A DNA stretch of 59,639 bases from an uncultured Oscillospiraceae bacterium (lineage in GTDB: Bacteria > Bacillota > Clostridia > Oscillospirales > Oscillospiraceae), in NCBI GenBank assembly GCA_947624585.1, contig CANQKZ010000001.1, positions 1 to 59,639 on the forward strand. Reading direction: 5' to 3'. The first letter of the stretch is position 1; each line of letters starts with the position of its first letter. Shown piece after piece: positions 1-59,639 of the stretch. The notes beneath the pieces were generated by a model. It ran no database searches and was not told the DNA's origin. It saw only the letters and a list, made by a program, of their open reading frames with translations. Position numbers and translations under genes: made by a program.

Positions 1-71
1 GGCCACGGGCCGCCCGTCTGGGGCTTGCGTGGGGAACCGTGACACGGGGCCACGGGCCGCCCGTCTGGGGC
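1..71. repeat. Tandem 47-bp direct repeat, about 1.5 copies, truncated by the window edge
   Basis: GGCCACGGGCCGCCCGTCTGGGGC occurs at 1-24 and again at 48-71. The longer unit CGTGGGGAACCGTGACACGGGGCCACGGGCCGCCCGTCTGGGG spans 28-70. Confidence 0.85.
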
Positions 72-76
72 TATCC

Positions 77-14446: not shown

Positions 14447-15075
14447 GTCAGGGACAGTCGAGGCGGGAGCGGGTCGTCGAGGGGATGGCGATCTGGGGGA
14501 GTTACTACCGGGAGAACATCGACGAGTTCGTGACGGACTACCTGGGGTTCACCTTTTTGAAGTGGTTTCAGCTGGCGCTTCTCGTGATGATGAATTGCTG
14601 CCGGACCTTTGTTTTGATCGCGGCCCGAGGAATCGGAAAGTCCTTCCTGGTGGCGATCTTCGCCTGCGTCCGGTGCATTTTGTACCCGGGGACGCAGGTG
14701 GTCATCACCTCCGGGACCAGGGGGCAGGCCATCAACGTCCTGGAGAAGATCCAGGTACAGCTCATGCGGGATTCCACGAATCTGCGCAACGAGATCGACC
14801 TGGAAAAATCCAAGTTCTCCGGCCAGGACGCCAAGGTGCTTTTCAAAAACGGGAGCTACATCAAGGTGGTCACGGCCAACGACTACGCCCGCAGCAACAG
14901 GGCGAACATTTTGATCGTGGACGAGTTCAGGATGCTCCGCAAGGACACCGTGGATACCGTCCTCAAGAAGTTCCTGACAAGCCGGCGGATGCCGGCGTAC
15001 AGCGAGCTGACGGACGCCGAGCGCAAAGCGGAATACGCCAAGGAGCCCAACGAGTCCTTCTACTTATCATCGGCT
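14443..15075 (+). CDS. terL: Terminase large subunit, exon 1 (ATPase domain)
   Basis: Walker A is ARGIGKSF, Walker B is ILIVDEF, and motif III is YLSSA at the exon end. TAA follows immediately as the first intron codon. Confidence 0.85.
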
Positions 15076-17064: not shown

Positions 17065-17110
17065 AAAGGGGGCGACAAGAACGGACGAGCAGAAAAAGGA
17101 CGTGGGAGGC

Positions 17111-30120: not shown

Positions 30121-33100
30121 ATGGCGAAGGTGATCGACGCGGGGTCGGATATACAGCTGCTGTTTGGCGTGCTGGGCGGCGGAGAACTGAGCGGCGAGAG
30201 CGGGGCGCTTATCAAAAGGCAGCTGACGGAGCTGCAAAGGGCGCTGAACGCCGACCCCTTTAAAATAAAGGTAGCGCTGGACACGGAGGCGGGCGGGAAG
30301 AAGTCCTGGAGCAGTATGCTCCAGACGAAGCTCAACGCGCTGGGTGACAGCGAAAAATTTTCCATAAAAATCTCCAAGCTGGATATCGGGGACGGGGCGA
30401 TTGGGGATCTCAAGAGGCGAATCGAGGCGGTCCTCAATACGCTCAGTCTGGAGCGTGGCGTCTCCCTCTCCGTAAAGGCGGAGGATGTGGGGGAGGTCGC
30501 CTCGAAGGTTAAGGCCGCGGGGGACGCCGCCGCGGAGGCCGCCAGAAAGACGGCAGAGTTCAACGCGCAGATGGAGACGTTGAACGGCCAGAAAAGCGAG
30601 GTTCTAAAGGCGCTGAACGCCGCTGAGAAAGCGGACCTGACGGAGGAGGAGAGCGCCAGAGTCCGGGAGCTTCGGACGCAGTACGAGGGCTACGCGAAGA
30701 GCATCTATGAGGTGAACGCGGCCAAGAGTGTCGCTACGCCGGAGCATAGGGCAGAAATCGAGGCCGAGGGCAGGGCGATCCTGGAGAACGTCAATGCCCT
30801 GAACGAGGAACGCCGCGCCAGAGATGAGGCGGCGAAGTCGGCAGAAAGGGAAGCCGCCCAGAGTGCCGCCGATGAAAGGGCTAAGGCAAACGAGGCAAAC
30901 CTGTATAAGCAGATCGCGGACGCGATCATACGGGTACAGGCGGCCCAGCAGAATTGGACGGCGGCACAGCACGGCAACGCCAGTGTGGATTACGCGCAGC
31001 TGGATGGGTATATTCAGAGGTTGCAAAATCTGAGGGCGACGCTGGATACGGTGACGCCAGAGAAGGCCAAGGCGACCCTGGCGGATATCATCAGGGAATT
31101 CAAAAATTCCTCGGAGGCGATCCGGGCCGCCGGGGAGAACACCAGGACCTTTACGGAGCGGCTGGGTGGACTTGCCAGTAAATTCGGGATCTGGCTGAGC
31201 GCGTCGCGCATCGTGATGATGGCGGTGAGGCTTACAAAACAACTGGTCCGCGCCTCCATAGAGCTGGACGACGCCATGACGCAGCTGCAGATCGTGACAC
31301 GGGCCAGTAACGAGGAGCTGGAGGCGTATTCCAAGACCGCCGCCGAGACGGCGCGCAGGATAGGCTCGTCCATCTCGGACTTTGTTGGCTCCACAACGAC
31401 CTACGCGAGGCTGGGGTATAATACGGAGCAGTCCAGCGCGCTGGCGCAGTATACGGCGATGCTCCAGAATGTGGGGAATATTGAGGTCGGCGACGCCCAG
31501 GACGCCATCACGTCTATCGTGAAGGCGTTCGGTATCGGGGTGGATGAGATCGAGTCCGTGATGGACAAGCTGGTTGTCACAGGCAACAACTTCCCCATTT
31601 CCGTCAGCCAGATCGCCGAGGGCATGACCAATGCCTCCTCGGCGCTGGCGGCGGCGGGGAATACATTTGACCAGTCCGTGGCGCTGCTGACGGCGGCCAA
31701 TACGACGGTGCAAAACGCCGCTAAAGCTTCGACCGGTCTTCGGACCATTGCGGCAAGGCTCCGGAACACGAAGACGGAGCTGGACGATCTGGGCGAGGCA
31801 ATGATCGAGGGGACGTATGAGGAGCTTGTAGCGGCCCTCACAAAATACAACGTGGCGCTTCGGGACTCCGCCGGGGAGTTCAGAAGTACATATGACATCA
31901 TCGCGGATATCGCCGAGGTCTGGGACAAGATGTCTACCACGGAGCAGGCGGGGCTTGCCACGGCGGTCTCCGGTACGAGACAGCAGGCGATTTTCTTCTC
32001 GCTGGTGGAGCAGTTCCAGGAAGCGCAGGGGGCCATGGAGGACATGGCGAACAGCGCCGGGACGCTGGAGGAATCCTACGGCATTTACATGGACAGCGTC
32101 ACGGCCCACGTCAACCAGCTCAAGGCGGCCTTTCAGGGGCTGGGGCAGGAGACGTTCACCAGGGAGTTTTTGGTGGGCGTTGTAGATCTCGGCACTACGC
32201 TTGTGAATATCGCCGGCGCGGTCATGGATGTGGTCAATAAGCTGGGCGGGCTCAACACCGTGCTCTACACGACGCTGGGCATTCTGGCGACCATCAACGC
32301 CCAGGCGATCCTGGCGCAAATCAAAAAGATCCTCGGAATTTTTCCGAAGGTCATCTCCTTCGTGACAAGGCTGGGGCAGGCGGTGCCCATTGCGATCAGC
32401 CTGTTCCGCGAGGGAGACCTGGCGGCCCTGGACGGGGCGCCGACGGTCTTAGGAAAAATCACCACGGCCTTGCAGGCTGTGGGTATCTCTGCCAGCGCCG
32501 CGCAGATCGCGGTAGGTGCCTTTGTGGCCGTGCTGGGCGTGGTGCTCCTGGCGGTCAGCGCGCACAATCGGGCCATGGAGGAGGCCAGACAGCGCGCCGA
32601 GGAGGCGGCGAGGGCCTATGAAACAACGGTTTCCTCCATCGACGGGTATAAAGAAAAGATCGCCGAGCTCAAGCGCTCTCTGGACGAGGGGAACCTCTCC
32701 CAGGAGGAGGCGTACAACGCCCGCGTGGAGCTTCTGGCCCTCCAGGGGGAAATACGGGACGCCTACGGGAAAGAGGCCGAGGCTATTGACCTGGTGGGGG
32801 ACAGCGCGGAGAGATCCGCCGAAAAGCTAAGCGGCCTGACCCGCGCCGCCGCCAATGAGTTTTTGTCGGCAAACGCCTCGGAGATAGACAAGGCCATCGA
32901 GAAGATGGAAACCGTCAGGGAGTATTTCAGCGGACAAGGCGCACCCGGTTTGATTGGTGATTCCGGGGCGAACGCGGAAGTAACCAAGGCCATTCGGGAT
33001 ATCGTAAGTAAATACAAGCACGCATGGCTGGAATACGGCTTGGACACGAAAACCGGCGGAAAGCTTATGTCGCTCCATGTAACGGCCGACGCGGAGGACG

Positions 33101-36100
33101 CCAAGGAGACGCTGGTAGGGCTGGCCGCGGATTTTGAGAAGCTCAGAAAGGATTTCCTTGAAAAGGGAATCAATATAGAGGAAATTTTCCCCAGTGATAA
33201 TACCTTTGCCGAGAAATTTGAGAAGACGATCAGCAGGGTAGATGAGATCATCGAGGAGTATGGGGAGACATACGACAAGGCCATTCAGGCGAAAATCGTC
33301 CAAAACGATGTGTATGCCGGCGTGATGGACCAAATCACCGGGGCAAACAAGGCGCTTCGGGAGGCCGTGGCTTCGGGAGACGCTGTGGAGCTGGCGGAGG
33401 CGGCGGAGGCCGTCAGCCGGCTGTTCGTAGACCCGGAGCGAATCGACGATGCCGGCGTGCGCAAGTATATGGAGGAGCTTATTGCCCAGATGCAGGCGGA
33501 GGCGCTGAAATATGCCATCAATGTGAGGCTCGCGGCGGACGTGGACACGGACGACTGGACGAAGAGGGTCAAGGCGGCGCTGGGGGTCCTCGCCGGGGAG
33601 GACGGCGTCGTCACGGCGACGGACATCCGCGACGCCGGCATTACGGCCAGGGCCGAGGGCGAGAACGCCGCCCAGACCCGCGGATATATGAGCGCCGAGG
33701 CGTTGGCGTGGGCCGAGCTGGACATAGCGGCCAGCGAGTACCACACGGACGTGGAGGGGCTCATACCGCTTCTGGAGCAGTACGGGTATCTCACCAAGAG
33801 CGCGACGGACGAGATGGATGGCGAGACGGCGGCGGCCGTGGAGCTCGCGGACGCGCTGTCTGCGCTTGGCGGGCTTTACGATTTGCTGACCAAAGCGCAA
33901 AGCGAGATGGATGCCGGCGGCCTTTCCCCCGGGACGGCGCAGTCCATTATCAAGGAGCTTGCCGAGGCCGGAGAGGACTACACAGAGTACCTCACGGAGG
34001 AGAACGGCGTTCTGAAGCTCAACACAGAGGCTTGGGACGCGTATATTGCCGCGAAGCGGGCGGCGGCGGACGGCGGTGTGGGCAAGGCGGTCGTCGAGAG
34101 CATGATCGACGAGGCGGCGCTCACGAGGCTGGACGACGCGAGAGAGCGGCTGGAGGAGCTCCAAAAGGCGCTGGACGGGCTGGACGGCGCGGACGAGCTC
34201 AGCACGGATGCCTATGAAACTCTGGAGGGGCTCCTGCCGGGTATTACCTCTCGCGTCAACAGCGTGAAGGACGCTCAGGAGCTTTTGAACGAGGCCATCG
34301 CCAAGCAGAAGGAGGTAACGGCGGAGGCATACGCTGAGTATGTTTGGGGCGCCGAGAACTCCATCTTTGCCGACGAAGACCGGTGCGAGAGAATTCTGGC
34401 GGAGAACCAGGGGCTGACGGACACCCTCAATAAATGCTACGGCGTAGATCTGGACAACTGGGGCGACCTTGCCAAGGGCAAGTGGGCCATTGAAAAGAGC
34501 CTGGTCGGGGACCTGTCCGAGCTGTGGCAGAAATACCACAATGTGTCCGACGAGGAACTGAAATCCTCCATCCAAAAGCTGGAGTCCAAGGACCGCGTTA
34601 AGACCAAGGTGGGTAGGTTGCTGCAAGAGGGCGGATTTCTCCCGGAGGACGCGCTCATAGGGCTGAACGACGAAGAGCGGAAGGAGCTTGACGACATGAA
34701 GGCCGCCCTGGCCGTCCGGCAAGAGCTGGCGCGGCAGTGGCAGGAGCTCAATGACGCCATCAACGGCGCCGGCTCCGGCGGGTCGGGCTCCAAGAGTGTC
34801 GAGGCGTATATCGCGGACATCGACCGGTTCCGCAAGGCCGTGGAGGCGCTGCGGAAGGCGCAGGAGGACCGGGAGCGGGTCGAGGGGAGCATTGAGGGCG
34901 CCGGGAGCTACGAGCGGAAGATCGGGCTGGAGCAGGAGCTCATCACGGCGTATAAGTCCGAGCAGGAGGCCCTGCACGCGCTCAACGACGCCAGGGACGA
35001 GGCTATCGCCGAGGGGGCGGAGTCCCTCCGGGCGCTGGGCTTTGAGGTGGCATACAACGCCGACACCAATGAGCTGTGGATCGAAAACCTGGAGCATTTA
35101 AACGAGCTCACGGCCAAAAGCCGCGGCAAATACGACTCCCTCCAGGAGGCCACCAACGGGCTGCGGAAGGAAACGGAGGAGCTCATTGAGACCATCACGG
35201 ACCTCAATGAGAAAAACCGGGAGGGTTCCAAGTCGTGGCTGGAGATCGAGAAAAGCATCCGCGAGGCGATGCTGGCGGTCTTCGAAATGCGCCGGGCGGC
35301 CAGAGAGAACGCCGTCACCCTGAACGAAAACTGGCAGGAAAACGCCATTGAGGGGTATGACTACGGCGGCGTCCGGCTGTACACGGAGAACCTGATCGCC
35401 CAGCGCCGCGCCATGCAGGAGGAGCTCCACCGGGAGGCGGAGTATTACCGGTCCCTGGGGTATTCAGACACCAGCGACGAGGTAAGCGAGCTTTCGGACC
35501 TGTGGTGGGACTACGAGCGGGAGATCAGCGAGGCGGTGGCCACGGCCTGGGGGCAGGTGGTGGACAACGCCAGCTCCGCCGTGGACGAGATACAGGAGGT
35601 ATACGATGTTCTCCACGAGGCGGCGGACGAGTTCGCGGCCAACGGGTTCATCACCGTGGACACCTTCCAGTCCATTGTGGGGCTGGGGGCGCAGTATATG
35701 CGGTATCTCACCGACGAGAACGGGCTTTTGAAAATCAACCACGACAGCATCGACGCCGTCATTGCCGCGAAGACCCGGGAGCTGGCGATGAATGAGGCGC
35801 TGGCGTATGTGGAGAGGCTCAGGGCGTCCTTGCAGGATGGGAACATCGAGCAGCTCCAGGAGCTTTTGTATGCCACCACGCAGGCCACCGGCGGAACGTG
35901 GGGGCTGATTTACGCCAATCTCGCCCTCCTTGACCTGGACGGCGATCAGTATGAGGCGGCGCTCCACAATATCAACGCCATACGGGCGCTGGCGGACGCG
36001 GCGGTCTCCGGCGTGGGGCAGACGGCCGGGAGCCTTTCCAATGAGCTCCAGGACATGAAGACGGGGCTGGACGATATCCTGAAGTATGTCATGGACATGC

Positions 36101-37329
36101 TCAAGCAGAGAGTTCAGGACCAGATCGACGCCCTGGAGGATATGAAGGACGCCTATGCCGAGCTCATTGACCTGAGAAAGAAGTCCCTGGAGAACGCCGA
36201 GAAGGAGGCGGACTACCAGGAGACGGTGGCCGAGAAGACCAGGGAGCTTGCGAAGCTCCAGGAGCGCATCGACGCTTTGAGCCTGGACAACAGCCGGGAC
36301 GCCGCGGCCCAGCGTGCCAAGCTGGAGGAGGAGATGGCCGATCTCCAGAAGGAGCTGGCGGACACCCAGGCCGACCACGCCAGGGAGGCCCAGGAGGATG
36401 CCCTGGACGATATGCAAAGTGCCTACGAGGCGGAGAAGGACGGAGAGATCGCGGCGCTGGAGGAGAGCGTTTCGTCCACGGAGAAGCTTTATCGGATGGC
36501 AATCGAGTATATCCGGGACAACTGGGAGACGCTGAAGGACGAGCTTATCCAATGGAACTATGAGGTCGGGACAAGCTTCCAGTATGATATCGAGAACGCC
36601 TGGGACGCGGCGTTGAAAGCGGCGCAGAGGTACGGGGACTACGTGACGGCGCTGGGGGGCATCGACGCGGATATAAGCGCCGCCGGCGGGAGCGTCCATA
36701 ACGATACCGTTTCCGGGAGCACACAGTATGACGCGTCCGCCTCCAGAGAGGAAGAGATACACGCCATCATCCGGGAGATGTGGGCAAACGCCCAGGCGTG
36801 GTTCGGCGCGGACGAGGACGGCCGGAAGAGGCTGGATCAGAGGAACCTTGATCTGGGAAACAGGCTGGCCGCCTATGGGATCAACGCCAGACGTGAAAAC
36901 GGGACATGGTACGAGGGCGACGAGCTTTTGTTTGAGAAGTATAAGAAGTACCTCTACCACAAGGGCGGGATCGCCGGAGACAAGCCGACGCTGAAGCAAA
37001 ACGAGGTGCTGGCTGTGCTGGAGAAGGGAGAGCCGGTCCTCGATAAGAGGAAAGAGGCGGGGCTTTTCAGGCTGGTGGATTTCACCACGGACCTTATGAA
37101 CCGGTTTGACCGCCTGACGGCGGCGCGTGGCGCGGAGGGCCTTTTCGGTAATGTCCGCAGGCCGGTCCCGGAGGTGGGACGCCTATTCCCGGAGGGGAAG
37201 CGGGGAATATCGGTGCAGTTCGGGGACGTGTACATCTACGGCGCGGACGACAGGACCGTGGAGAAGCACCGGGAGGTCAACCGGCAGTTTGTGAATGACG
37301 TTATTAAGCAGCTGGGGCTGAAGAGGTGA
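30121..37329 (+). CDS. Tail tape measure protein (2402 aa)
   Basis: Giant Ala/Glu/Leu-rich coiled-coil ORF with hydrophobic segments near residues 640-790. The TMP-core-like region is AQYTAMLQNVGNIEVGDAQDAITSIVKAFGI. It lies between the chaperone and Dit genes. Confidence 0.9.
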   Translation: MAKVIDAGSDIQLLFGVLGGGELSGESGALIKRQLTELQRALNADPFKIKVALDTEAGGKKSWSSMLQTKLNALGDSEKFSIKISKLDIGDGAIGDLKRRIEAVLNTLSLERGVSLSVKAEDVGEVASKVKAAGDAAAEAARKTAEFNAQMETLNGQKSEVLKALNAAEKADLTEEESARVRELRTQYEGYAKSIYEVNAAKSVATPEHRAEIEAEGRAILENVNALNEERRARDEAAKSAEREAAQSAADERAKANEANLYKQIADAIIRVQAAQQNWTAAQHGNASVDYAQLDGYIQRLQNLRATLDTVTPEKAKATLADIIREFKNSSEAIRAAGENTRTFTERLGGLASKFGIWLSASRIVMMAVRLTKQLVRASIELDDAMTQLQIVTRASNEELEAYSKTAAETARRIGSSISDFVGSTTTYARLGYNTEQSSALAQYTAMLQNVGNIEVGDAQDAITSIVKAFGIGVDEIESVMDKLVVTGNNFPISVSQIAEGMTNASSALAAAGNTFDQSVALLTAANTTVQNAAKASTGLRTIAARLRNTKTELDDLGEAMIEGTYEELVAALTKYNVALRDSAGEFRSTYDIIADIAEVWDKMSTTEQAGLATAVSGTRQQAIFFSLVEQFQEAQGAMEDMANSAGTLEESYGIYMDSVTAHVNQLKAAFQGLGQETFTREFLVGVVDLGTTLVNIAGAVMDVVNKLGGLNTVLYTTLGILATINAQAILAQIKKILGIFPKVISFVTRLGQAVPIAISLFREGDLAALDGAPTVLGKITTALQAVGISASAAQIAVGAFVAVLGVVLLAVSAHNRAMEEARQRAEEAARAYETTVSSIDGYKEKIAELKRSLDEGNLSQEEAYNARVELLALQGEIRDAYGKEAEAIDLVGDSAERSAEKLSGLTRAAANEFLSANASEIDKAIEKMETVREYFSGQGAPGLIGDSGANAEVTKAIRDIVSKYKHAWLEYGLDTKTGGKLMSLHVTADAEDAKETLVGLAADFEKLRKDFLEKGINIEEIFPSDNTFAEKFEKTISRVDEIIEEYGETYDKAIQAKIVQNDVYAGVMDQITGANKALREAVASGDAVELAEAAEAVSRLFVDPERIDDAGVRKYMEELIAQMQAEALKYAINVRLAADVDTDDWTKRVKAALGVLAGEDGVVTATDIRDAGITARAEGENAAQTRGYMSAEALAWAELDIAASEYHTDVEGLIPLLEQYGYLTKSATDEMDGETAAAVELADALSALGGLYDLLTKAQSEMDAGGLSPGTAQSIIKELAEAGEDYTEYLTEENGVLKLNTEAWDAYIAAKRAAADGGVGKAVVESMIDEAALTRLDDARERLEELQKALDGLDGADELSTDAYETLEGLLPGITSRVNSVKDAQELLNEAIAKQKEVTAEAYAEYVWGAENSIFADEDRCERILAENQGLTDTLNKCYGVDLDNWGDLAKGKWAIEKSLVGDLSELWQKYHNVSDEELKSSIQKLESKDRVKTKVGRLLQEGGFLPEDALIGLNDEERKELDDMKAALAVRQELARQWQELNDAINGAGSGGSGSKSVEAYIADIDRFRKAVEALRKAQEDRERVEGSIEGAGSYERKIGLEQELITAYKSEQEALHALNDARDEAIAEGAESLRALGFEVAYNADTNELWIENLEHLNELTAKSRGKYDSLQEATNGLRKETEELIETITDLNEKNREGSKSWLEIEKSIREAMLAVFEMRRAARENAVTLNENWQENAIEGYDYGGVRLYTENLIAQRRAMQEELHREAEYYRSLGYSDTSDEVSELSDLWWDYEREISEAVATAWGQVVDNASSAVDEIQEVYDVLHEAADEFAANGFITVDTFQSIVGLGAQYMRYLTDENGLLKINHDSIDAVIAAKTRELAMNEALAYVERLRASLQDGNIEQLQELLYATTQATGGTWGLIYANLALLDLDGDQYEAALHNINAIRALADAAVSGVGQTAGSLSNELQDMKTGLDDILKYVMDMLKQRVQDQIDALEDMKDAYAELIDLRKKSLENAEKEADYQETVAEKTRELAKLQERIDALSLDNSRDAAAQRAKLEEEMADLQKELADTQADHAREAQEDALDDMQSAYEAEKDGEIAALEESVSSTEKLYRMAIEYIRDNWETLKDELIQWNYEVGTSFQYDIENAWDAALKAAQRYGDYVTALGGIDADISAAGGSVHNDTVSGSTQYDASASREEEIHAIIREMWANAQAWFGADEDGRKRLDQRNLDLGNRLAAYGINARRENGTWYEGDELLFEKYKKYLYHKGGIAGDKPTLKQNEVLAVLEKGEPVLDKRKEAGLFRLVDFTTDLMNRFDRLTAARGAEGLFGNVRRPVPEVGRLFPEGKRGISVQFGDVYIYGADDRTVEKHREVNRQFVNDVIKQLGLKR

Positions 37330-50202: not shown

Positions 50203-50409
50203 ATGGCGGAGACGAGGTATTACCACCTTCATCTGACGGACAGCGACGCCGAGAAGTTTTTGGCCTGGCGAGAGGCGATGAACGGGACGGAGGCGTCCAA
50301 TATGGTCAAAATCGACGCGGCGCTTTATGAGAAGGAGCGTGTCGTCATATCCGCTGAGCAGCCGGAGGGGCTGACGGAAAACGACACGTGGCTTGAGGAG
50401 GTGGGATGA
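50203..50409 (+). CDS. Small hypothetical protein
   Basis: 68 aa, ending ..NDTWLEEVG, the same C-terminal motif as the preceding ORF. Confidence 0.45.
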   Translation: MAETRYYHLHLTDSDAEKFLAWREAMNGTEASNMVKIDAALYEKERVVISAEQPEGLTENDTWLEEVG

Positions 50410-50410
50410 T

Positions 50411-51832
50411 ATGGCAGAGAAAGTGAAGAAGGTACGGGAGAAGAAGCTCATCAACGGAGAGTGGGTAACGATCCACCGGGAGACGGGCGCAAGCTCCGTG
50501 AAGTTCGATGACGGGAGCACGTTCCAGGAGAAGCTGGACAGCGGGGAGCTCAAGGGGCCCAAGGGCGATCAGGGCGCGGTGGGCGCGCAGGGAACGGCGG
50601 GCGCGCCCGGTAAGGACGGCGCCGCTGGCGCCAAGGGCGACACAGGCGATACGTGGGTGCCCAGCGTGGACGCCTCCACGGGGGCGCTGTCGTGGGCAAA
50701 GAACAGCGGTGTGATGCCGCAGACAGTGAACATCAAAGGACCGCAGGGGGCGACGGGTCCTGCCGGCCCTACCGGCCCTGCCGGTGCGAAAGGGACGGAC
50801 GGGGTTTCCCCTACGGTGAAGGTGTCCAAGTCCGGCACCGTTACCACCGTCACTTTCACCGACGCCGCCGGAGATAAGGTTGCCACCATCAACGACGGCA
50901 AGAACGGCGCAAATGGGACAAACGGAACTAACGGCAAGGACGGCGCGGCGGGGGCGCGGGGCAGCCAGTGGTTTTCCGGCACGGGAGTGACAGGAAACAG
51001 CGGCACCGCCGCCGTGTTCGCCAATTCCGGCGTCAGCTCCGCTCTTGTGGGAGATTGGTATCTCAACACCAACACAGGGTACGTCTACACCTGTACGCTT
51101 GAGGGCGTGGCCTCCGTGGCGAAATGGGTATACAAGGGAAGTATCAAAGGCGTGACGGGTGCTGCCGGCCCAGCCGGGCCCGCTGGCGCCGCGGGCGCGA
51201 AGGGCGACACCGGGGCGGCGGGGCCCAACACTGTGAGCACTTCCACCGGCACCAACATCACGGGGCTTTTGAAGGGCAACGGGAGCAAGGTGGCGCAGGC
51301 AGTTGCGGACACGGATTACCTGACACCTGATACTGCCTCCGGCACATATATGCCCATAAAGGGCGGGAAGTTCACGGGCAACGTCAGCGGGCAATATTTT
51401 ACCGGTACGTGGCTGCAAACCACGGCGGCGGGTAATCTCGCTTCGGCGGCCTCCAAAATAGCCGTGCTTGACGACAAAGGGTGGGTGTATTACCGCACCC
51501 CGGCGCAGATACTCGGCGACATCGGGGCTGTGCCAACGACCCGCAAGGTCAACGGCAAGGCGCTGTCGACGGATATCTCACTTTCTGCGGCGGACGTAAG
51601 CGCAAGGCCATTGACCTGGACGCCCACAGCCGCTGACGTGAAAGCGCTTCCGCTGGCGGGCGGGACGATGACGGGCAATATTGCCATGGGCAGCCACAAG
51701 GTGACGGGGCTGGCGACACCGACGGCGAGCACAGACGCGGCAACGAAAGGGTATGTGGACGGCAAGATCCAATACGGCACCTCCGTCCCCGCGACGCTGG
51801 CGGACGGCGTCGTGTACCTGGTCTACGAATGA
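50411..51832 (+). CDS. Collagen-like repeat tail fibre protein
   Basis: Two Gly-X-Y tracts (GPKGDQGAVGAQGTAGAPGKDGAAGAKGDTGDT, and a second GPAGPAGAAGAKGDTGAAGP). ATG at 50411. Confidence 0.8.
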   Translation: MAEKVKKVREKKLINGEWVTIHRETGASSVKFDDGSTFQEKLDSGELKGPKGDQGAVGAQGTAGAPGKDGAAGAKGDTGDTWVPSVDASTGALSWAKNSGVMPQTVNIKGPQGATGPAGPTGPAGAKGTDGVSPTVKVSKSGTVTTVTFTDAAGDKVATINDGKNGANGTNGTNGKDGAAGARGSQWFSGTGVTGNSGTAAVFANSGVSSALVGDWYLNTNTGYVYTCTLEGVASVAKWVYKGSIKGVTGAAGPAGPAGAAGAKGDTGAAGPNTVSTSTGTNITGLLKGNGSKVAQAVADTDYLTPDTASGTYMPIKGGKFTGNVSGQYFTGTWLQTTAAGNLASAASKIAVLDDKGWVYYRTPAQILGDIGAVPTTRKVNGKALSTDISLSAADVSARPLTWTPTAADVKALPLAGGTMTGNIAMGSHKVTGLATPTASTDAATKGYVDGKIQYGTSVPATLADGVVYLVYE

Positions 51833-54359: not shown

Positions 54360-54433
54360 AACGACAATTTCATGACCGAGTTTCAGGGCCTCGCCGATAG
54401 CGGGGCCCTATTTCTATGGGAAAGGAGGCGGTT

Positions 54434-55459
54434 ATGGGACGTAAGACGAGGCAGAACAAGATCTGCACGCCGGAGCTGATCGCGAAAATCAATCCGAAAA
54501 ACGTAAGGCTCACGGAGGATTTTCTGGAATATCTGCGCAGCGTGGGCAAGGCGGAGAGTACGGTGAAGGCGTATGAAAACGACCTTCACATTTTCTTTGT
54601 CTGGGCACTCCAGAACGCGGACAACAAATATTTCCCGGAGATCAGCAAGCGGGATATCGTGGCGTATCAGAACTGGCTTTTGCGGCAAAACGAAAATTCG
54701 CCCGCCAGGGTAAGGCGGCTCAAGAGTACGCTGTCGTCTCTGAGCAACTACATCGAGGCTATCATGGACGACGAGCTGCCGCACTTCCGGTCCATCGTCC
54801 GAAAGATAGAAAACCCGGTGAACGAGCCCACCAGGGAGAAGACGGTGCTGACGGACGAGCAGACAAAGACCATCCTCGACACCCTGGTGGAGAGAGGGCA
54901 GTATGAGCAGGCGTGCTTTTTCGCGCTGGCGCTCTATTCGGGGAGGAGAAAGTCGGAGCTGCTGCGGTTTAAGGTGTCCTATTTCGACGAGGAAAATATC
55001 ATCTACGGCTCGCTCTATAGGACGCCGGAGAAGATCCGGACGAAGGGCAGGGGCGTCAACGGGAAGATGCTGACCTGCTATGTGCTGGCAAAGCCCTTCA
55101 AGCCGTATCTGGACCTCTGGATGAAGCAGAGAGAGGAGCGGGGCATCGAGAGCGAGTGGCTGTTCCCGGACAGGAGCGACCAGACGCGCCACGCGCCCAT
55201 TACGACGGCGAACAGCTGGGCGGAGATGTATTCCAGGATCAGCGGGACGGACATCTATATGCACTGTCTGAGGCACGCCTTTACCACGAATCTGGCGAAG
55301 GCGGACATACCGGATTCTGTGATACAGGCCATTGTTGGCTGGGAGTCAGCTGACATGGTGCGCGTTTATGTGGATACAGACAGCGAGGAGGAGTTCGGAA
55401 AGTATTTCGCGGACGGGGAGCTTGTGGGGCGCAAGCCCGGGGAGCTCTCGGAATTGTGA
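54434..55459 (+). CDS. Tyrosine recombinase, XerC/D-like (SAM-like N-domain plus catalytic domain)
   Basis: ALYSGRRKSELLRF (Arg I), HCLRHAFTTNL (His-x-x-Arg) and GWESADMVRVYVD (Tyr). ATG 54434 follows AAAGGAGG; an in-frame ATG at 54416 is also possible. Confidence 0.85.
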   Translation: MGRKTRQNKICTPELIAKINPKNVRLTEDFLEYLRSVGKAESTVKAYENDLHIFFVWALQNADNKYFPEISKRDIVAYQNWLLRQNENSPARVRRLKSTLSSLSNYIEAIMDDELPHFRSIVRKIENPVNEPTREKTVLTDEQTKTILDTLVERGQYEQACFFALALYSGRRKSELLRFKVSYFDEENIIYGSLYRTPEKIRTKGRGVNGKMLTCYVLAKPFKPYLDLWMKQREERGIESEWLFPDRSDQTRHAPITTANSWAEMYSRISGTDIYMHCLRHAFTTNLAKADIPDSVIQAIVGWESADMVRVYVDTDSEEEFGKYFADGELVGRKPGELSEL

Positions 55460-55466
55460 GGGGAGC

Positions 55467-56363
55467 ATGAAGTATTCAGAGGCAAACAGGCCGCTCGTGT
55501 GTATGCAGACGCAGAGCCGGTGCTATAAGGAGACGCGGAAAATGAAGGTGCTGGGCGTTTTGTGGCACAGCACGGGGGCGAACAACCCCCAGCTCCGGCG
55601 CTATGTCCAGCCCAGCGACGACGACCCCAACAGGGAGGAGCTTTTGCGAATCCTGGGGGTCAACAAAAACCGCAACGACTGGAACCATGTCTCCGTGGGC
55701 GCCGGCCTTAACTGCTGGATCGGGAAGCTGGCGGACGGGACGGTGGCGACGGTGCAGACCATGCCGTGGGATTTCCGCCCGTGGGGGTGCGGCCACGGGA
55801 AGAAGGGGTCGTGCAATTCCGGTTGGATACAATTTGAAATGGCGGAAGATTCTTTGAACGATCCTGTATATTTTGGCGCCGTTTATAGGGAGGCTTGCGA
55901 GATCACGGCGTATTTGTGCAAGCTTTATGGAATCGACCCGCATGGGACGGTGAGGGTCAACGGGGCGGATATCCCGACGATCCTGTGCCACCACGACAGC
56001 TATGTGCTGGGGTTCGGGTCCGGGCATGTGGACGTGACGCATTGGTTTCCGAGGTTCGGGAAGTCCATGGAGACGGCCAGGGATGACGTGGCGGCCTTGC
56101 TGGCCGCCGATAAGGAGGATGAAGACGTGAGCTTTGAGAAATTCATGGAGTACATGAACCAGTACCGTGGGAGCATCCAGGACAACGACAGCGGTACATG
56201 GAGCCAGGAGGCCAGAGACTGGGCCGTTCGGACGGGAATGGTCGCCGGGATGGGGACTCTGCCCACCGGGGAGCCCAACTATGCCTGGGAGGACTTTTTG
56301 ACCAGAGAGCAGATGGCGATGCTGCTCTACCGCTTCGCACAGATGATGGGCAAGGCGTCCTGA
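55467..56363 (+). CDS. Endolysin: N-acetylmuramoyl-L-alanine amidase (Amidase_2/PGRP type) with an SLH-like C-terminal domain
   Basis: LWHSTGANNP...WGCGHG...ILCHHDSYVLGFGSGHVDVTHW is typical of amidase_2. The C-terminus WSQEARDWAVRTGMVAGMG...FLTREQMAMLLYRF resembles an S-layer homology motif. Confidence 0.75.
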   Translation: MKYSEANRPLVCMQTQSRCYKETRKMKVLGVLWHSTGANNPQLRRYVQPSDDDPNREELLRILGVNKNRNDWNHVSVGAGLNCWIGKLADGTVATVQTMPWDFRPWGCGHGKKGSCNSGWIQFEMAEDSLNDPVYFGAVYREACEITAYLCKLYGIDPHGTVRVNGADIPTILCHHDSYVLGFGSGHVDVTHWFPRFGKSMETARDDVAALLAADKEDEDVSFEKFMEYMNQYRGSIQDNDSGTWSQEARDWAVRTGMVAGMGTLPTGEPNYAWEDFLTREQMAMLLYRFAQMMGKAS

Positions 56364-56746
56364 TGAAGGGGAAGCATGAGAGGCAAAGGGAGCGGGAGGA
56401 GCAAAAGCGGGTGACGGCCCTTGGAAGGTTCATCCGGCACATGGCGGGGCTGGGATTTACCAACCGGTGCGCCATATATATCCTCCTGTTCCTTGTCGCC
56501 GGGATCGCCGGCGGATTTATCCTGGCGGTGCTGAGCATCAGATACCAGTACGCCGGGGCGCTGGCCTGCTGGACGGTGGTGTTCACGCCCATAGGGACGG
56601 CGGTCGGCGTCGTGCTGGGGAAGATCGTGGACAAAAACAGGGCGGAGAACGTGTCCGGGAACGGGGACGGGATCACCTTTGCCGCCGCCGCGGCGAAGGG
56701 ATTTGCGAAGGAAACGAAGACGGGCCAACAGAGCCCGCCTATTTAA
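56363..56746 (+). CDS. Membrane protein, holin candidate
   Basis: 127 aa with two hydrophobic segments (CAIYILLFLVAGIAGGFILAVL, LACWTVVFTPIGTAVGVVLG). The ATG overlaps the endolysin stop. Confidence 0.55.
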   Translation: MKGKHERQREREEQKRVTALGRFIRHMAGLGFTNRCAIYILLFLVAGIAGGFILAVLSIRYQYAGALACWTVVFTPIGTAVGVVLGKIVDKNRAENVSGNGDGITFAAAAAKGFAKETKTGQQSPPI

Positions 56747-56764
56747 TATAAAGGAGGGACGCGC

Positions 56765-57088
56765 ATGAATGAGTGGGTGCGACTGATCGTGTCGGCGCTG
56801 CTGACGCTGGCGACTACGATCCCGCTGGTCATCAAGCTGGTGGAGTATGTGAAGAAGACCATCAAGGAGAAAAACTGGCCGGAGGTCGTGAAGATCGTGA
56901 TGGGCTACATGGAGAGGGCCGAGAAAATGTTTGAAAAGGGCGCCGACCGTAAGGAGTGGGTGCTGGCGATGGTCAGGGCGTCCGCGGAGCTGGTCAAGTA
57001 TGAGCTGGATATGGACGCGATTTCCAGCCTTATCGACGAGCTTTGCGATATGAGCAAAATCGTGAACGCGCCGCCCAGTGTAGGGTGA
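56765..57088 (+). CDS. LL-H-type holin-like protein
   Basis: 107 aa with a single N-terminal TM (WVRLIVSALLTLATTIPLVI) followed by a charged helical region typical of the LL-H holin family. Confidence 0.6.
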   Translation: MNEWVRLIVSALLTLATTIPLVIKLVEYVKKTIKEKNWPEVVKIVMGYMERAEKMFEKGADRKEWVLAMVRASAELVKYELDMDAISSLIDELCDMSKIVNAPPSVG

Positions 57089-57113
57089 TTCGGCGCGTAG
57101 ATGGGAGGCGGAT

Positions 57114-57566
57114 ATGAGCGTGAGCGAGATCGTCGGATGGAGCGGCGGCGGGGTGCTGCTCCTGATGACGCTGATACAGATCGCCCCGATCAAGTGGAAC
57201 CCCTGGTCGTGGCTGGCGAAGATGCTTGGGAGAGCTATCAACGCCGAGGTGCTGGGGGAGATCACGAACATCAAGCAGAAGCAGACCGAGGTGCAGGAGA
57301 AGCTGGAGGAGCATATCCAGGACGACGACGAACGGGATAAAAGCCTGACGCGCCGGAGGATCCTGGAGTTCAATATAAAGCTCATGCGCGGGGAGAATTA
57401 CACGCATGAGTATTTCACCGATATGCTTCAGGACATAGACGACTACGAGGGATACTGCAAGACCCATCCGGGGTACAAGAACAACCGGGCAAGGCTCGCC
57501 ATTGAGAATATCAAGAGAGTGTATGACGAGCACGCCAGGAAGGGAGATTTTCTCGGAGGGGTGTAA
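57114..57566 (+). CDS. Membrane-anchored hypothetical protein
   Basis: 150 aa with an N-terminal TM (GGGVLLLMTLIQIAPI), followed by a strong terminator. Confidence 0.6.
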   Translation: MSVSEIVGWSGGGVLLLMTLIQIAPIKWNPWSWLAKMLGRAINAEVLGEITNIKQKQTEVQEKLEEHIQDDDERDKSLTRRRILEFNIKLMRGENYTHEYFTDMLQDIDDYEGYCKTHPGYKNNRARLAIENIKRVYDEHARKGDFLGGV

Positions 57567-57576
57567 AACAAGAAAA

Positions 57577-57613
57577 GGGGGAACCGTCGAAAGGCGGTTC
57601 CCCCTGGCTTTTT
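57577..57613 (+). terminator. Rho-independent terminator ending the late/lysis operon
   Basis: Stem GGGGGAACCG (57577-57586), 8-nt loop, stem CGGTTCCCCC (57595-57604), then TGGCTTTTT. Confidence 0.85.
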
Positions 57614-57628: not shown

Positions 57629-57657
57629 TTTACATCACATAACGGCTGTGATATAAT
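57629..57657 (+). promoter_or_regulatory. Candidate promoter of the serine recombinase gene
   Basis: TTTACA (57629-57634), 17-nt spacer, TATAAT (57652-57657), preceded by TGa (extended -10). Confidence 0.55.
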
Positions 57658-57692
57658 ATGTTTATCATCTTTACAGAGAGAGGGGAGAGTGT

Positions 57693-59639
57693 ATGAGCGA
57701 CACGCAGAAGTTCGCGATTTACTCCCGAAAATCAAAATTCACGGAAAAGGGGGAAAGTATTGAAAACCAAATTGAGATGTGCAAGCAGTATCTCCAGCTT
57801 CACTATGGAGAAGACGCCGCCAAGGAGGCGCTGGTTTTTGAGGACGAGGGTTTTTCCGGCGGGACGTTGGATAGACCTTGCTTCAAAAAGATGATGGAGG
57901 CCGCCAATAGGGAGAGCTTTTCGGCTATCGTGGTCTATCGGCTGGACCGTATCAGCAGGAACATCGGGGATTTTGCGAAGCTGATCGAGCAGCTCAACGC
58001 GCTTGGGACAGGGTTCATCTCTATCAAGGAGCAGTTCGACACGTCCTCGCCGGTCGGGAGAGCGATGATGTACATTTCATCGGTGTTCTCTCAGCTGGAG
58101 AGGGAGACGATTGCGGAGCGTATTCGGGATAATATGCACGAGCTCAGCAAGACCGGACGGTGGCTTGGCGGGATCACGCCGACGGGGTATTGCTCCGAGG
58201 GCGTTACAAGGGTGAATGTGGACGGGAAGACGAAAAAGGCGTTTAAGCTGAAAATCATCCCGGAAGAAATAAGGATCGTAAAGCTTATTTATGATAAGTT
58301 TTTGGAGACGAATTCTCTGACGAAAACGGAGACGTTTCTGTTGAATAATGGATATGTCTCAAAAAACGGCAAAAATTATACGAGATTTTCTATCAGGGCT
58401 ATTCTGACCAATCCGGTGTATATGGTGGCGGACGAAAAGGCGTACCAATATTTTACCAGCCGAGGCGCCGATGTGTATGCCGAGGAAAAGGACTTCGACG
58501 GTTCGCATGGGGTCATGACGTATAACCGCACGCTCCAAAAAACGGGGCACGCGAATCAGATAAGGCCAATCGGAGAATGGATCGTTTCCGTTGGGCAGCA
58601 TGAGGGCGTTATCAGCGGCGAGACATGGGCGAAGGTACAGGCAAACCTGGAGGTCAATAGATCTAAGAGTTATAGAAAACCAAGGAGCCATGTGGCGCTG
58701 CTTTCCGGACTGCTGGTTTGCGGAAACTGCGGGGAGTTCATGAGGCCGAAGCTTACAAACCGGGTCAACGCTGATGGAGAGTACATTTATATGTACAAGT
58801 GCTCGATGAAGGAACGGAGCCTGCGGCATAAGTGCATGATGCGGGATTGCAACGGGAATGAGTTGGACAAGGAGATCATTGAGCAGGTCAAGGCTTTGAG
58901 CGAAGATGGGTCCGCTTTTTCCCGCCAGATTGAAAGGAACGAGAAAGAACGGGACGGAAAGGCAGACGAGTATAAAAAAGAAATCGCCCAGCTGGAAAAA
59001 GAAATTGCCGATAACGAGAACGAAATCAAAGGAATTGCCGCTGCGGTTGGAAAGGCCGGAGAGACTGCGGCGACATATCTCTTTGAACGAATCGAGGAGC
59101 TGCATAACAGAAATGTTAAGGCGAGAGAAAGAGTCGAGACGTTGAAAGAACTGACGGCGTCCAATGATATGTCCATGGCGGAGTTCGATATGCTGGCCGA
59201 TCTGCTCAGGTCGTTCCGCGGTACTGTGGATAAAATGAGCGTCGAAGAAAAAAGAGCGGCGATTAGGACGTTCGTAAAAAAGATTATCTGGGACGGGAAC
59301 AACGCGCATATGGTGTTGTTCGGTTCCGACTATGAGTATGAGTTCCCTGACGTTCCGATTGGCTTGGATACGGCAGAGAATGGGGAACACGAAAATTTTG
59401 ATGAATGGGTAGAAAGGTGGAATGTGAAGCCGTTAGGTGAGGATAGCGAACGAGATCCTCATGTATTTTCGGGCTCAGCGCAAGTCCGCCGGGGACGTGT
59501 CGCTGTCGGAGACCATCGACTCCGACGCCGAGGGGGGAAATCTGTCCCTCATGGACGTGGTTTGCGCCGAGGACGACGTTTTCGAGCGCTTGAGCTCTCA
59601 GGACGTGTACGCGCGGCTGCGCCGCCATGTGCGGGAGGG
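57693..59639 (+). CDS. Large serine recombinase (SpoIVCA/SprA-like); ORF still open at the window end
   Basis: Absent from the ORF track because no in-frame stop occurs before 59639. ATG 57693 follows AGGGGAGAG. The resolvase catalytic domain has AIYSRKSK (Ser nucleophile), VVYRLDRISRN and QLERETIAERI. There is a recombinase domain, a zinc ribbon (CGNCG...YKCS..RHKC) and a coiled coil (EIAQLEKEIADNENEIK). Recognisable homology ends near 59390. Confidence 0.9.
   Translation, partial: MSDTQKFAIYSRKSKFTEKGESIENQIEMCKQYLQLHYGEDAAKEALVFEDEGFSGGTLDRPCFKKMMEAANRESFSAIVVYRLDRISRNIGDFAKLIEQLNALGTGFISIKEQFDTSSPVGRAMMYISSVFSQLERETIAERIRDNMHELSKTGRWLGGITPTGYCSEGVTRVNVDGKTKKAFKLKIIPEEIRIVKLIYDKFLETNSLTKTETFLLNNGYVSKNGKNYTRFSIRAILTNPVYMVADEKAYQYFTSRGADVYAEEKDFDGSHGVMTYNRTLQKTGHANQIRPIGEWIVSVGQHEGVISGETWAKVQANLEVNRSKSYRKPRSHVALLSGLLVCGNCGEFMRPKLTNRVNADGEYIYMYKCSMKERSLRHKCMMRDCNGNELDKEIIEQVKALSEDGSAFSRQIERNEKERDGKADEYKKEIAQLEKEIADNENEIKGIAAAVGKAGETAATYLFERIEELHNRNVKARERVETLKELTASNDMSMAEFDMLADLLRSFRGTVDKMSVEEKRAAIRTFVKKIIWDGNNAHMVLFGSDYEYEFPDVPIGLDTAENGEHENFDEWVERWNVKPLGEDSERDPHVFSGSAQVRRGRVAVGDHRLRRRGGKSVPHGRGLRRGRRFRALELSGRVRAAAPPCAGG
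59430..59465. other. Approximate prophage/host junction (attR)
   Basis: Host-like sigK coding sequence starts between 59437 and 59449. A 7-bp inverted repeat TGAGGAT(10 nt)ATCCTCA lies at 59438-59461. The exact crossover cannot be placed without attL or attB. Confidence 0.45.
59437..59639 (+). CDS. sigK: 3' segment of a split sigK-like sporulation sigma factor gene (partial)
   Basis: The frame with position mod 3 = 1 reads (VRIA)NEILMYFRAQRKSAGDVSLSETIDSDAEGGNLSLMDVVCAEDDVFERL. B. subtilis SigK, as recalled, reads [41 protein letters not shown]. The match is closer to SigK than to SigE ([23 protein letters not shown]). No start codon is present and TAG lies at 59434. Confidence 0.7.
   Translation, partial: MRIANEILMYFRAQRKSAGDVSLSETIDSDAEGGNLSLMDVVCAEDDVFERLSSQDVYARLRRHVRE

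Follow-up and report, generated by a model that had tools for sequence, protein, structure and literature searches.

In Bacillus subtilis, the skin/SpoIVCA-Skr and SPbeta/SprA-SprB systems each consist of a prophage or prophage remnant that is bounded by a large serine recombinase (LSR) and splits a mother-cell gene, and phage and non-phage elements can exchange the recombinase-att unit of these systems (PMC6957869, PMC4191935, PMC5499854). The skin element of C. difficile combines a constitutive LSR with a regulated recombination directionality factor (RDF), CD1234 (PMC5025042), and LSR-edged skin elements have been published by Galperin et al. for 15 Firmicutes species (bioRxiv 10.1101/2022.02.25.481979). 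Complete phages have also been described within sigK: the inducible Clostridium perfringens phage phiS63 is a temperate siphovirus whose precise excision restores the gene (PMC3442830), and the 105-kb infectious Alicyclobacillus phage MMB025 is identical to a sigK-integrated prophage (PMC13141910). The novelty that the original prediction implied for a phage in sigK is thus not sustained. The locus described here lies at the end of a 59,639-nucleotide stretch of DNA from an uncultured Oscillospiraceae bacterium, the whole of which we refer to as the window. It has the layout typical of skin, with an LSR that lies at the element's edge and reads in the direction of the 3' part of sigK (bioRxiv 10.1101/2022.02.25.481979), and all parts of the skin-like interpretation that could be tested were supported. 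We propose, with a probability of roughly three in four, that the window comprises 59.4 kb from the right-hand side of a temperate prophage of siphovirus type inside sigK, together with 189 bp of the host gene, and that excision of the phage on induction, possibly in the mother cell, would rebuild sigK.

The boundary between element and host was located at 59449/59450, with the LSR gene upstream and 189 bp coding for SigK region 2.4/3 downstream. In a frame other than that of the LSR, stop codons at 59410, 59425 and 59434 precede a frame that is open from 59437 to the end of the window and translates as VRIANEILMYFRAQRKSAGDVSLSETIDSDAEGGNLSLMDV...RLRRHVRE. As originally described, this segment has a stop close upstream and no start codon ahead of it, and a full-length, uninterrupted sigma gene that might have been missed upstream of the fragment was found in none of the frames of the window. 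The SigK frame of about 200 bp that had been read at this end required one correction: SigK regions 2.4/3 are encoded from 59449 onwards, while the opening four residues, VRIA (59437-59448), come from element DNA belonging to the P arm of attR, which imitates sigK. This P arm (CCGTTAGGTGAGGATAGCG; 59430..59448, + strand) lies within the 3' end of the LSR open reading frame (ORF) and is conserved in 16 other junctions. The first host bases of sigK are the AA of AAC at 59449-59451, and this AA (59449..59450, + strand) is the predicted crossover dinucleotide, corresponding to bases 1-2 of the Asn codon in the motif ENEILM, as deduced from the relatives L339, L187 and L263. The remaining host DNA (59451..59639, + strand), which encodes regions 2.4/3, is ended by the window edge. 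The coding sequence of sigK is broken by element DNA, and the 3' fragment that is left has no start codon of its own.

Against NCBIfam profiles, the 67-residue translation of the fragment scored 45.8 and 43.7 bits for SigK, over profile positions 111-164 of 235, versus 36.1 and 33.6 bits for SigE, scores that serve only to rank SigK over SigE because the fragment is too short for the SigK cut-off. With 289 and 279 bits, full-length orthologues from intact relatives pass this cut-off of 252 bits, and they lie far under that of SigE (208-211 bits; cut-off 339). Fragment and orthologues therefore agree with the earlier assignment to a sporulation sigma factor and not a non-sporulation one; judged by profile, the fragment is best read as SigK, and SigE or another sigma factor was ruled out on the scores of fragment and orthologues. 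The intact relatives have ARC[IV]ENEILM at the insertion site, and the sigK orthologues of relatives carry a pro-sequence. The host would be a gut Oscillospiraceae-type Clostridia bacterium whose sigK encodes pro-sigma-K.

The LSR gene (57693..59639, + strand) starts with the ATG at 57693 and encodes the catalytic motif YSRKS at residues 10-14, with the Pfam domains Resolvase (1.4e-32), Recombinase (3.8e-18) and Zn_ribbon_recom (1.9e-10) all above cut-off. Its closest solved structures are the TP901-1 integrase and SPbeta SprA, although the match to SprA is distant (54 bits over the catalytic region), and a protein search of deposited phages gave LSRs of Terrisporobacter and Clostridium phages, with identities of at most 38.5%. 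By these features it is a complete LSR of the phage integrase type, situated at the very edge of the element. The original claim that this gene sits directly against the junction holds insofar as an intact LSR at the element's edge is directed towards the 3' part of sigK, but the ORF does not end there. Its LSR-homologous part ends at approximately 59390-59435, and the ORF continues through attR into sigK DNA, giving 649 codons to the window end without a stop; in the integrated state it thereby carries 63 or more additional codons, an unnatural extension rich in Arg. As a side finding, we noted that the LSR stop codon straddles the crossover or lies past it. Because of this position, the C-terminal tail of the LSR would differ between the integrated and excised states, which might conceivably contribute to directionality control. 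Upstream of the gene is a predicted sigma-A-type promoter (57629..57657, + strand; TTTACA, 17 nt, TATAAT; 11/12 matches) with an extended -10 TG and a palindrome, TCACA-N7-TGTGA, within the spacer. Across the start of the LSR gene lies a small ORF (57617-57763), an overlap like that of skr in B. subtilis; as it begins before the predicted promoter, right after a terminator, it was rejected as an RDF candidate.

The same junction, CCGYTAnGTGAGGATAGCr/AAYGARAT ("RIA/NEILM"; slashes mark the joint), was found behind homologous LSRs at about 17 other loci. It occurs in about 10 of the approximately 72 Oscillospiraceae-type species representatives sampled, so that a single recombinase-att module splits sigK in a sizeable share of gut Clostridia, and cultured strains carrying it include Flavonifractor sp. 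An92, Pseudoflavonifractor sp. HCP28S3_F10 and Faecousia intestinalis CLA-AA-H192. The P arm is common to 17 attR junctions; that of the window is identical to the P arm of Flavonifractor sp. An92, agrees with the family consensus, and forms an inverted repeat with the P' arms at the attL sites of relatives. All 52 database homologues of the sigma fragment are 118 residues or shorter, most of them C-terminal pieces of sigK, and an LSR lies directly upstream of the sigK piece in each of the five long contexts looked at (L001, L003, L005, L006 and L008); the 3' half in L003 is 81% identical to the fragment studied here. The best 120 matches to the N-terminal half of sigK are nearly all split 5' halves, and those sampled terminate in EN+AIL[ST], with an attL junction that reads "EN/AILT".

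Three relatives contain complete elements of 6-10 kb with both sigK halves present: L187/L188 (6.1 kb), L263 (7.3 kb) and L336-L340 (about 10 kb), a set with a 3.57-Mb genome record among its members and with the LSR clade closest to that of the window (67% identical). Joining the L187 halves in silico at the AA core yields an intact, in-frame sigK. In L339, attL and attR have only AA in common at their centre, which implies the same sigK joint as in L187. The attP palindromes of L187 and L263 are likewise centred on AA, and the P and P' arms of L187 are inverted repeats at 17 of 19 positions. The attP of the relatives can be written as the imperfect palindrome CCGYTAnGnGAGGATAGC-r-AA-y-GCTATCCTnnCnTArCGG. 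These att sites are of the LSR type, with imperfect inverted-repeat arms around a 2-bp crossover, and recombination in the relatives takes place at the 2-bp core AA in the Asn codon of the conserved ENEILM, at the end of region 2.4. Comparing sigK halves and intact genes among relatives, akin to the alignment originally suggested for defining attB and the crossover, has placed both at this codon, with an in-frame gene after joining. Integration was made by the LSR, whose gene is the last of the element and contains the P arm of attP in its 3' end. In some relatives sigK is split twice, the second site being in the region 4.2 helix (ISRSYVSR/IEK). Phages, mobilizable islands and defence islands carry the same recombinase-att module in relatives, and the module may be exchangeable.

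According to the mechanism that we propose, the 5' half of sigK would lie further left than the window reaches, at a predicted attL reading ...ATYA(A/S)RC(I/V)E-AA-y-GCTATCCTCACCTAACGG... and followed by phage DNA to the left of a repeat array. The predicted products of excision would read ...GAR AAC GAG ATC CTC ATG... at attB and CCGTTAGGTGAGGATAGCG AA y GCTATCC... at attP. The LSR would be produced constitutively from its own sigma-A-type promoter, like CD1231 of C. difficile and SprA of SPbeta, and a putative RDF would set the direction, excision versus integration. Expression of this factor on prophage induction, possibly in the sporulating mother cell, would excise the phage whole and rebuild sigK. 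Excision may be specific to the mother cell, and lysogeny and excision may be coupled to sporulation, as the original prediction raised.

Alternatively, sigK may be a passive target, a conserved and safe attB in which the resident prophage knocks out sigma-K and late sporulation and from which it leaves only by induction or curing, with no mother-cell programme. We consider this somewhat unlikely. No RDF was found, the search (tblastx) for one as a protein common to the window and 17 other elements at the site having returned the LSR only, no sporulation promoter came to light, and the LSR promoter is of the vegetative type. A sporulation phenotype has not been established for phiS63 or MMB025 either (PMC3442830, PMC13141910), and some Oscillospiraceae have been described as non-spore-forming (bioRxiv 10.1101/2022.02.25.481979). 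However, although sigK is split very often in this clade, the sampled halves are open, conserved frames, which argues that the gene is still in use and is regularly rebuilt. Moreover, the experimentally tested B. subtilis and C. difficile skin elements, as well as SPbeta, all pair an LSR that is constitutive or under separate control with an RDF that sporulation controls (PMC5025042, PMC6957869). A broader proposal, which we put forward as a doubtful extension of excision that rebuilds sigK, is that the gene is a multi-site landing pad (ENEILM and region 4.2) for serine-recombinase elements in gut Oscillospiraceae and related Clostridia, that some genomes need two excisions, and that the state-dependent LSR tail aids directionality. 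If true, two recombinases and two independent excisions would be needed for sigma-K in some genomes, making a two-key developmental switch.

The 57.6 kb to the left of the LSR is siphovirus-type phage, and the element as a whole is at least 59.4 kb with 59% GC. Near its left end are orf435 (126..1433, - strand), a conserved early protein of the phage family with a weak sigma-r4/GerE-type HTH, a NUMOD-like domain and a low GC content of 47%, and tyrosine recombinase 1 (2144..2980, + strand), a phrog_216 integrase conserved in 80 related viral contigs. An RdRP-like (YonO-type) RNA polymerase gene (4896..8646, + strand; Pfam RdRP 2.6e-12) is present in two pieces, 4896-6737 and 7840-8646, both of which match phrog_35857. 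The terminase large subunit region (14443..17064, + strand) comprises an N-terminal part at 14443-15078 and a downstream ORF at 15583-17064. It is followed by a portal protein (16967..18541, + strand; phrog_2739, 2.6e-106), a candidate major capsid protein (21278-22294) matching phrog_4088, a family with no assigned function, and a 2402-residue tail tape measure protein (30121..37329, + strand; phrog_4211, 2.1e-97). Further to the right are the distal tail protein Dit (37816-38601, + strand), a large tail protein (38625-42980, + strand), a tail fibre protein with collagen-like repeats (50393..51832, + strand), tyrosine recombinase 2 (54416..55459, + strand) and a lysis cassette (55332..57566, + strand) made up of an endolysin (55332-56363) and small membrane proteins (56765-57088 and 57114-57566). 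No match to a sheath family was found among the ORFs scanned. As read from its genes, a co-oriented block, this would be a temperate, siphovirus-type tailed phage, and the terminase, portal, tape measure, Dit, tail, fibre and endolysin genes bear out the earlier description of the DNA as phage. The accompanying claim that the genes are apparently intact stands with a qualification, as the terminase and RdRP-like genes look split, each being interrupted by a group I intron (Intron_gpI, 15066-15353 in the terminase gene; Intron_gpI, 88 bits, 6726-7055 in the RdRP-like gene).

Since the GC3 of the LSR (0.64) is lower than that of the phage (0.81), and since, in about 80 related phage contigs that share the left-hand module, neither an LSR nor sigK DNA occurs within 10 kb of it, the LSR module may be a recent acquisition or may come from a separate resident element. 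In the latter case the recombinase and att sites would derive from a small resident skin element and the phage would be a passenger, inserted in or beside it through a tyrosine recombinase. The phage carries two tyrosine recombinases, and the closest LSRs (54-68% identical) lie on 6-10 kb non-phage elements. Such a composite origin is nevertheless improbable. Between the last lysis gene and the start of the LSR gene lie only 126 bp, which contain the intrinsic terminator of the lysis operon (57576..57605, + strand; 13-bp stem with 9 G-C pairs, T tract) and the promoter but no other cargo. In the related phage L316/L335, where the lysis cassette is syntenic and tyrosine recombinase 2 has the same position, a different LSR occupies the exact slot behind the cassette, which argues that the slot is the position of the family's integration module. 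Tyrosine recombinase 2 has phage genes on both sides and so defines no prophage end; being internal to the phage, it was ruled out as the enzyme of the sigK insertion. Tyrosine recombinase 1 might still be a candidate, but at its right-hand end the element has an unambiguous LSR attR. The phage would leave together with the element either way.

Returning to a prophage integrated by its own LSR, its left part would extend beyond the window. The window begins inside an iteron-like repeat array (1..72, with a third copy at about 1678-1725), and more than 15 related IMG/VR contigs stop in the equivalent array, just beyond the terminator of the orf435 homologue. As many related contigs break in this array and conserved phage genes lie further left in relatives, the idea that the window's left end is the true end of the prophage was rejected; the window starts at an assembly break and not at attL. 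Exact-protein look-ups returned no record for orf435, sought for leftward extension, and only a 2.7-kb contig for tyrosine recombinase 1. The predicted attL, or P' arm, had no match in viral contigs, and a looser attL pattern matched 120 loci in metagenome contigs, none with genes of this phage beside attL. Within the window, a search for a second P-arm copy marking an internal attL matched the attR copy alone, weaker matches being at chance level, and neither the window nor the 10-kb flanks of the split loci L001-L074 contained a 5' half of sigK. By analogy with the relatives, the phage would lie whole between the two sigK halves. That the final 190 bp were wrongly joined to a phage contig is very unlikely: the host part is short, the window ends inside it and the left end is an assembly break, but the junction coincides exactly with the conserved P arm and core of the LSR family, and LSR-sigK adjacency recurs in dozens of independent assemblies, isolate genomes included.

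Few intact phages have been listed as living in sigK, phiS63 and MMB025, and the locus adds to them a large, apparently functional phage of a gut Oscillospiraceae-type host. Its target is defined as the AA in the Asn codon of ENEILM, and the palindromic arms of attP overlap the recombinase gene at its end. In these metagenome-assembled genomes, many sigK genes that count as "missing" or "truncated" have probably been split and not lost, and the cultured strains with the same junction could reveal whether prophage carriage gates sporulation and hence the transmission of gut anaerobes. Compared with phiS63, which has a Clostridium host, 33.6 kb and 27.5% GC, the element is larger and richer in GC, and its integrase gene has the same orientation as sigK, whereas that of phiS63 is opposite (PMC3442830). 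The attB core of phiS63 contains AATGAAAT, an N-E-I coding string that resembles the site used here (PMC3442830), but in our reading of the published core, GTAATGAAAT would fit a G-N-E-I motif about 30 codons downstream of ENEILM. MMB025 shares with this element its large size, apparent functionality, inverted repeats, very short core and adjacent site-specific recombinase; its published core is TCTC, versus AA within AAYGAR here, and it belongs to another phage lineage, with a host of class Bacilli (PMC13141910). In C. difficile, the CD1231 promoter is likewise sigma-A-type (TTTAAA/TATAAT versus TTTACA/TATAAT here) with inverted repeats near both, and the model of constitutive LSR and regulated RDF is the same, but the skin element is a defective 14.6 kb and sigma-K lacks the pro-sequence of the orthologues here (PMC5025042). 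SPbeta, an active phage, has a YonO-type RNA polymerase and introns, as does this phage with its RdRP-like gene and two group I introns (PMC6957869, PMC4191935, PMC5499854), although its target gene is spsM, and B. subtilis skin uses another sigK site. The skin elements surveyed by Galperin et al. span 2.6-48 kb, smaller than the element here, and that survey reports neither a high frequency in gut Oscillospiraceae nor doubly split genes (bioRxiv 10.1101/2022.02.25.481979).

The original prediction placed a fragment of SigK region 2.4/3 beside the large serine recombinase (LSR) gene at the right end of the window. We translated the region in all frames, besides reading it directly. Stops at 59410, 59425 and 59434, in a frame other than that of the LSR, precede an open stretch from 59437 to the window end (VRIANEILMYFRAQRKSAGDVSLSETIDSDAEGGNLSLMDVVCAEDDVFERLSSQDVYARLRRHVRE), and no uninterrupted sigma gene was found upstream of the junction in any frame. 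Scored against NCBIfam, this 67-aa fragment gave 45.8 and 43.7 bits with SigK (profile positions 111–164 of 235) and 36.1 and 33.6 bits, under the SigK scores, with SigE. Since the fragment is short, full-length orthologues from related genomes were tested as well. These reached 289 and 279 bits with SigK (cut-off 252) and 208–211 bits with SigE (cut-off 339), and carry a hydrophobic pro-sequence ending FP(K/R)PLS. Domain matches and the ranking of SigK above SigE, for fragment and orthologues alike, thus bear out the predicted identity over both a different sigma factor and a hidden full-length gene.

All 52 of the 52 database homologues of the fragment were no longer than 118 aa, the majority being C-terminal sigK pieces, and an LSR gene lay directly upstream in the same orientation in 5/5 long contexts looked at (relative loci L001, L003, L005, L006 and L008). 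A scan over species-representative genomes returned 80 sigK loci, for the most part from Oscillospiraceae (genera Faecousia, Limivicinus, Lawsonibacter, Flavonifractor and Pseudoflavonifractor). sigK was intact at about 62 of these, reading ...ATYA(A/S)RC(I/V)ENEILM..., and about 10 showed ...RIA|NEILM... in its place. Alignment of 17 split junctions revealed an arm, CCGYTAnGTGAGGATAGCr, kept on the element side directly 5' of AAY GAR AT. The window copy of this arm (the P arm of attR, the right junction; 59430–59448) has the same sequence as in Flavonifractor sp. An92 (L040), and we interpret the window junction as a conserved recombinase site rather than a chance fusion. Because the P arm occupies these positions, the 'VRIA' that opens the sigK-looking frame is element DNA resembling sigK, and host DNA starts within the AAC codon at 59449–59451. 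The sigK frame originally drawn from 59437 therefore stands from this codon onwards, without its first residues.

The best 120 matches to the N-terminal half of sigK were nearly all 109–182 aa long with a region 2 domain only, and those sampled end ...RC(C/I)EN, followed by AIL(S/T). Their DNA reads ...GAR AAY GCTATCCTnACnTArCGG at the junction, an inverted repeat of the attR arm. Complete elements with both sigK halves were found at L187/L188 (6.1 kb), L263 (7.3 kb) and L336–L340 (about 10 kb, one 3.57-Mb genome record included), the last carrying the LSR clade nearest to the window LSR (67% identity). In L339, attL, the left junction, reads ...GAG AAC GCTATGC... and attR ...TATAGCA AAT GAA..., with AA as the only central common sequence; the palindrome GGATAGC-rAAy-GCTATCC is centred on this AA. 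A non-palindromic 2-bp core flanked by inverted-repeat arms is a signature of LSRs. Joining the halves in silico at AA restored an in-frame ...RCIENEVLMYF... (L187). Comparison of the two junctions thus gave AA as the crossover dinucleotide in relatives, and homology places the window crossover at 59449–59450. The window attL, outside the stretch, should read ...GAR AA y GCTATCCTCACCTAACGG. At L182 (10001–14694) and L184, two serine recombinase genes (401 and 565 aa) come after the sigK 5' half, with cobalamin genes behind them and no sigK 3' half following; these loci may be rearranged or decayed, or the 3' half may be located elsewhere.

The window attL was sought beyond the stretch by protein look-up and among viral and metagenome contigs, and was not recovered. 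The window starts within a short repeat array (1–72), just beyond the terminator of orf435 (126–1433, minus strand), a low-GC gene with a weak sigma-r4/GerE HTH and a NUMOD-like domain. With a further copy at 1678–1725, these iteron-like direct repeats flank orf435; such repeats also lie at L099:8216–8343. In 80 related IMG/VR phage contigs (55–135 kb), orf435 occurs together with tyrosine recombinase 1 and the RNA polymerase gene; more than 15 of these contigs likewise end within the equivalent array, and contigs that read through it have more conserved phage genes on its left. The window thus starts at an assembly break, and the prophage extends beyond it, with attL further left. The array might serve in partition or as an origin, or be simply an assembly-breaking repeat.

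The LSR gene starts at ATG 57693 on the plus strand, with the ribosome-binding region GAGAGGGGAG 5' of it. Its product has Resolvase, Recombinase and Zn_ribbon_recom domains, each over the Pfam cut-off, and a YSRKS motif, which is typical for serine recombinases; the nearest relatives of solved structure are TP901-1 integrase and SPbeta SprA. The right end runs from the lysis cassette (ending at 57566) through a strong terminator (57576–57605) and a near-consensus predicted sigma-A promoter (57629–57657; TTTACA, 17 nt, TATAAT, extended -10 TG) to the LSR gene. A perfect palindrome within the promoter spacer, TCACA-N7-TGTGA, may act as a repressor operator. At window 59390–59639, L187:16440–16490 and L339:11740–11790, the P arm of attP, the site on the excised element, sits inside the LSR gene 3' end, and in relatives the LSR stop TGA straddles the crossover (AGC AAA TGA), so the LSR C-terminal tail differs between integrated and excised forms. 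In the window, AAC replaces the AAT of relatives, and the LSR reading frame consequently has no stop and extends into sigK DNA by at least 63 codons, rich in Arg. LSR homologues span 558 to 790 aa, a spread that fits variable C-terminal tails.

Save orf435, the real genes of the window share a single codon-position GC pattern and lie on the plus strand. For the tail, PHROGs and Pfam identified a 2402-aa tape measure, a distal tail protein, another tail protein of 1451 aa and collagen-like fibres. The same scans gave an exonuclease, a terminase large subunit, a portal protein and several virion proteins, along with two tyrosine recombinases and an endolysin. No sheath family matched among the scanned ORFs, which points to a siphovirus-type phage. 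Two broken-looking genes each contain one group I intron (Rfam RF00028, 88 bits each): at 6726–7055 in the RdRP/YonO-like RNA polymerase gene (4896–6737 plus 7840–8646) and at 15066–15353 in the terminase gene (14443–15078 plus 15583–17064). The introns would account for the breaks, making it reasonable to regard the phage as apparently intact, as first proposed. The low-GC3 ORF after each intron (7118–7765 and 15360–15926) matched no Pfam family and could be a putative homing endonuclease. The 613-aa protein at 4896–6737 (Pfam RdRP, PF05183, 2.6e-12; phrog_25339, 1.8e-191) is kept at 63–77% identity across about 80 related gut phage contigs, and we take its family to be the one including SPbeta YonO-type single-subunit RNA polymerases. 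A DUF3800-XI RNA motif (RF02975), with 58 bits against a gathering score of 37.8, lies at 11868–11915, directly 3' of the exonuclease gene (10676–11866).

Counting against the LSR as the phage's own are its GC3 (0.64 versus 0.81 for the phage and 0.86 for the sigK fragment), the location of the nearest LSRs in small non-phage elements, and the 80 phage relatives, which showed neither an LSR nor sigK DNA up to 10 kb from the left-hand module they share. Counting for it are the gap of only 126 bp between the last lysis gene and the LSR start, and the related phage L316/L335 (6760–8271), which has tyrosine recombinase 2, endolysin and holin-like genes ordered as in the window and, in the slot after them, a different LSR that lies on the opposite strand (31% identity). 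Beyond that LSR lie dUTPase, nrdG-like and nrdD-like genes. We concluded that the post-lysis slot is the integration-module position of the phage family, at which modules appear to be exchanged, and that the window module was swapped in; this agrees with experiments showing recombinase-att units to be exchangeable (PMC6957869). Alternatively, the phage is possibly nested with a separate LSR element, an arrangement that would leave the outcome the same, since excision of that element would take the phage with it. The cargo of the same recombinase-att module in sigK varies widely (L175–L181, L336–L340, L001, L005), including RepA_N/NikA-like with Z1/AIPR abortive-infection genes, Mob_Pre with SNF2/DndD-like defence genes, acetyltransferases and RHS/Fic toxins. 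In these bacteria sigK is a hot spot at which defence islands, as well as phages, integrate.

Many relatives carry a second split of sigK, inside the region 4.2 helix (...ISRSYVSR|RN*), beyond which lies another mobile element. The middle piece starts RIA|NEILM and ends ...ISRSYVSR plus 1–8 foreign residues, where IEKKAL normally follows (loci L005:10001–10354, L006:3491–3844, L008:8887–9216 and L010:2207–4035; proteins P0004, P0005, P0008, P0010, P0011, P0020, P0028, P0032, P0033 and P0037). At L010, the middle piece is 100 aa long and has an LSR gene pointing at it from either side, and the second element there encodes an exonuclease and a cI-like repressor besides its opposite-strand LSR; second elements elsewhere carry GmrSD/Fic/TnpV in one case and Phage_rep_org_N/IstB in another. 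Rebuilding such a gene would need two different recombinases, and we found no description of a twice-split sigK in the skin-element literature consulted for comparison.

The element is inserted within sigK. Its LSR is intact as read, with its own predicted promoter, and relatives define the att structure and core, with their halves predicted to rejoin in frame. By analogy with C. difficile CD1231/CD1234, B. subtilis SpoIVCA/Skr and SPbeta SprA/SprB (PMC5025042, PMC6957869, PMC5499854), the LSR would be made constitutively and an RDF (recombination directionality factor) would trigger attL x attR recombination, the RDF perhaps being expressed on induction and also from a mother-cell promoter. 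The search for an RDF as a protein common to the window and other elements at the site returned the LSR alone. Split sigK halves are very common in the clade, and that those sampled are nonetheless open, conserved frames indirectly supports regular rebuilding of sigK.

We take the phiS63 core, GTAATGAAAT, to read as a G-N-E-I motif about 30 codons downstream of the ENEILM site. This core is published (PMC3442830), and functional phages known inside sigK include phiS63 (PMC3442830) and MMB025 (PMC13141910). Published skin elements from 15 species have an LSR at the edge, mostly immediately 5' of the C-terminal sigK fragment, and share no other genes (bioRxiv 10.1101/2022.02.25.481979). Against this background, only the host group, the phage's size and type, the exact site and the high frequency of the arrangement in gut Clostridia are new.
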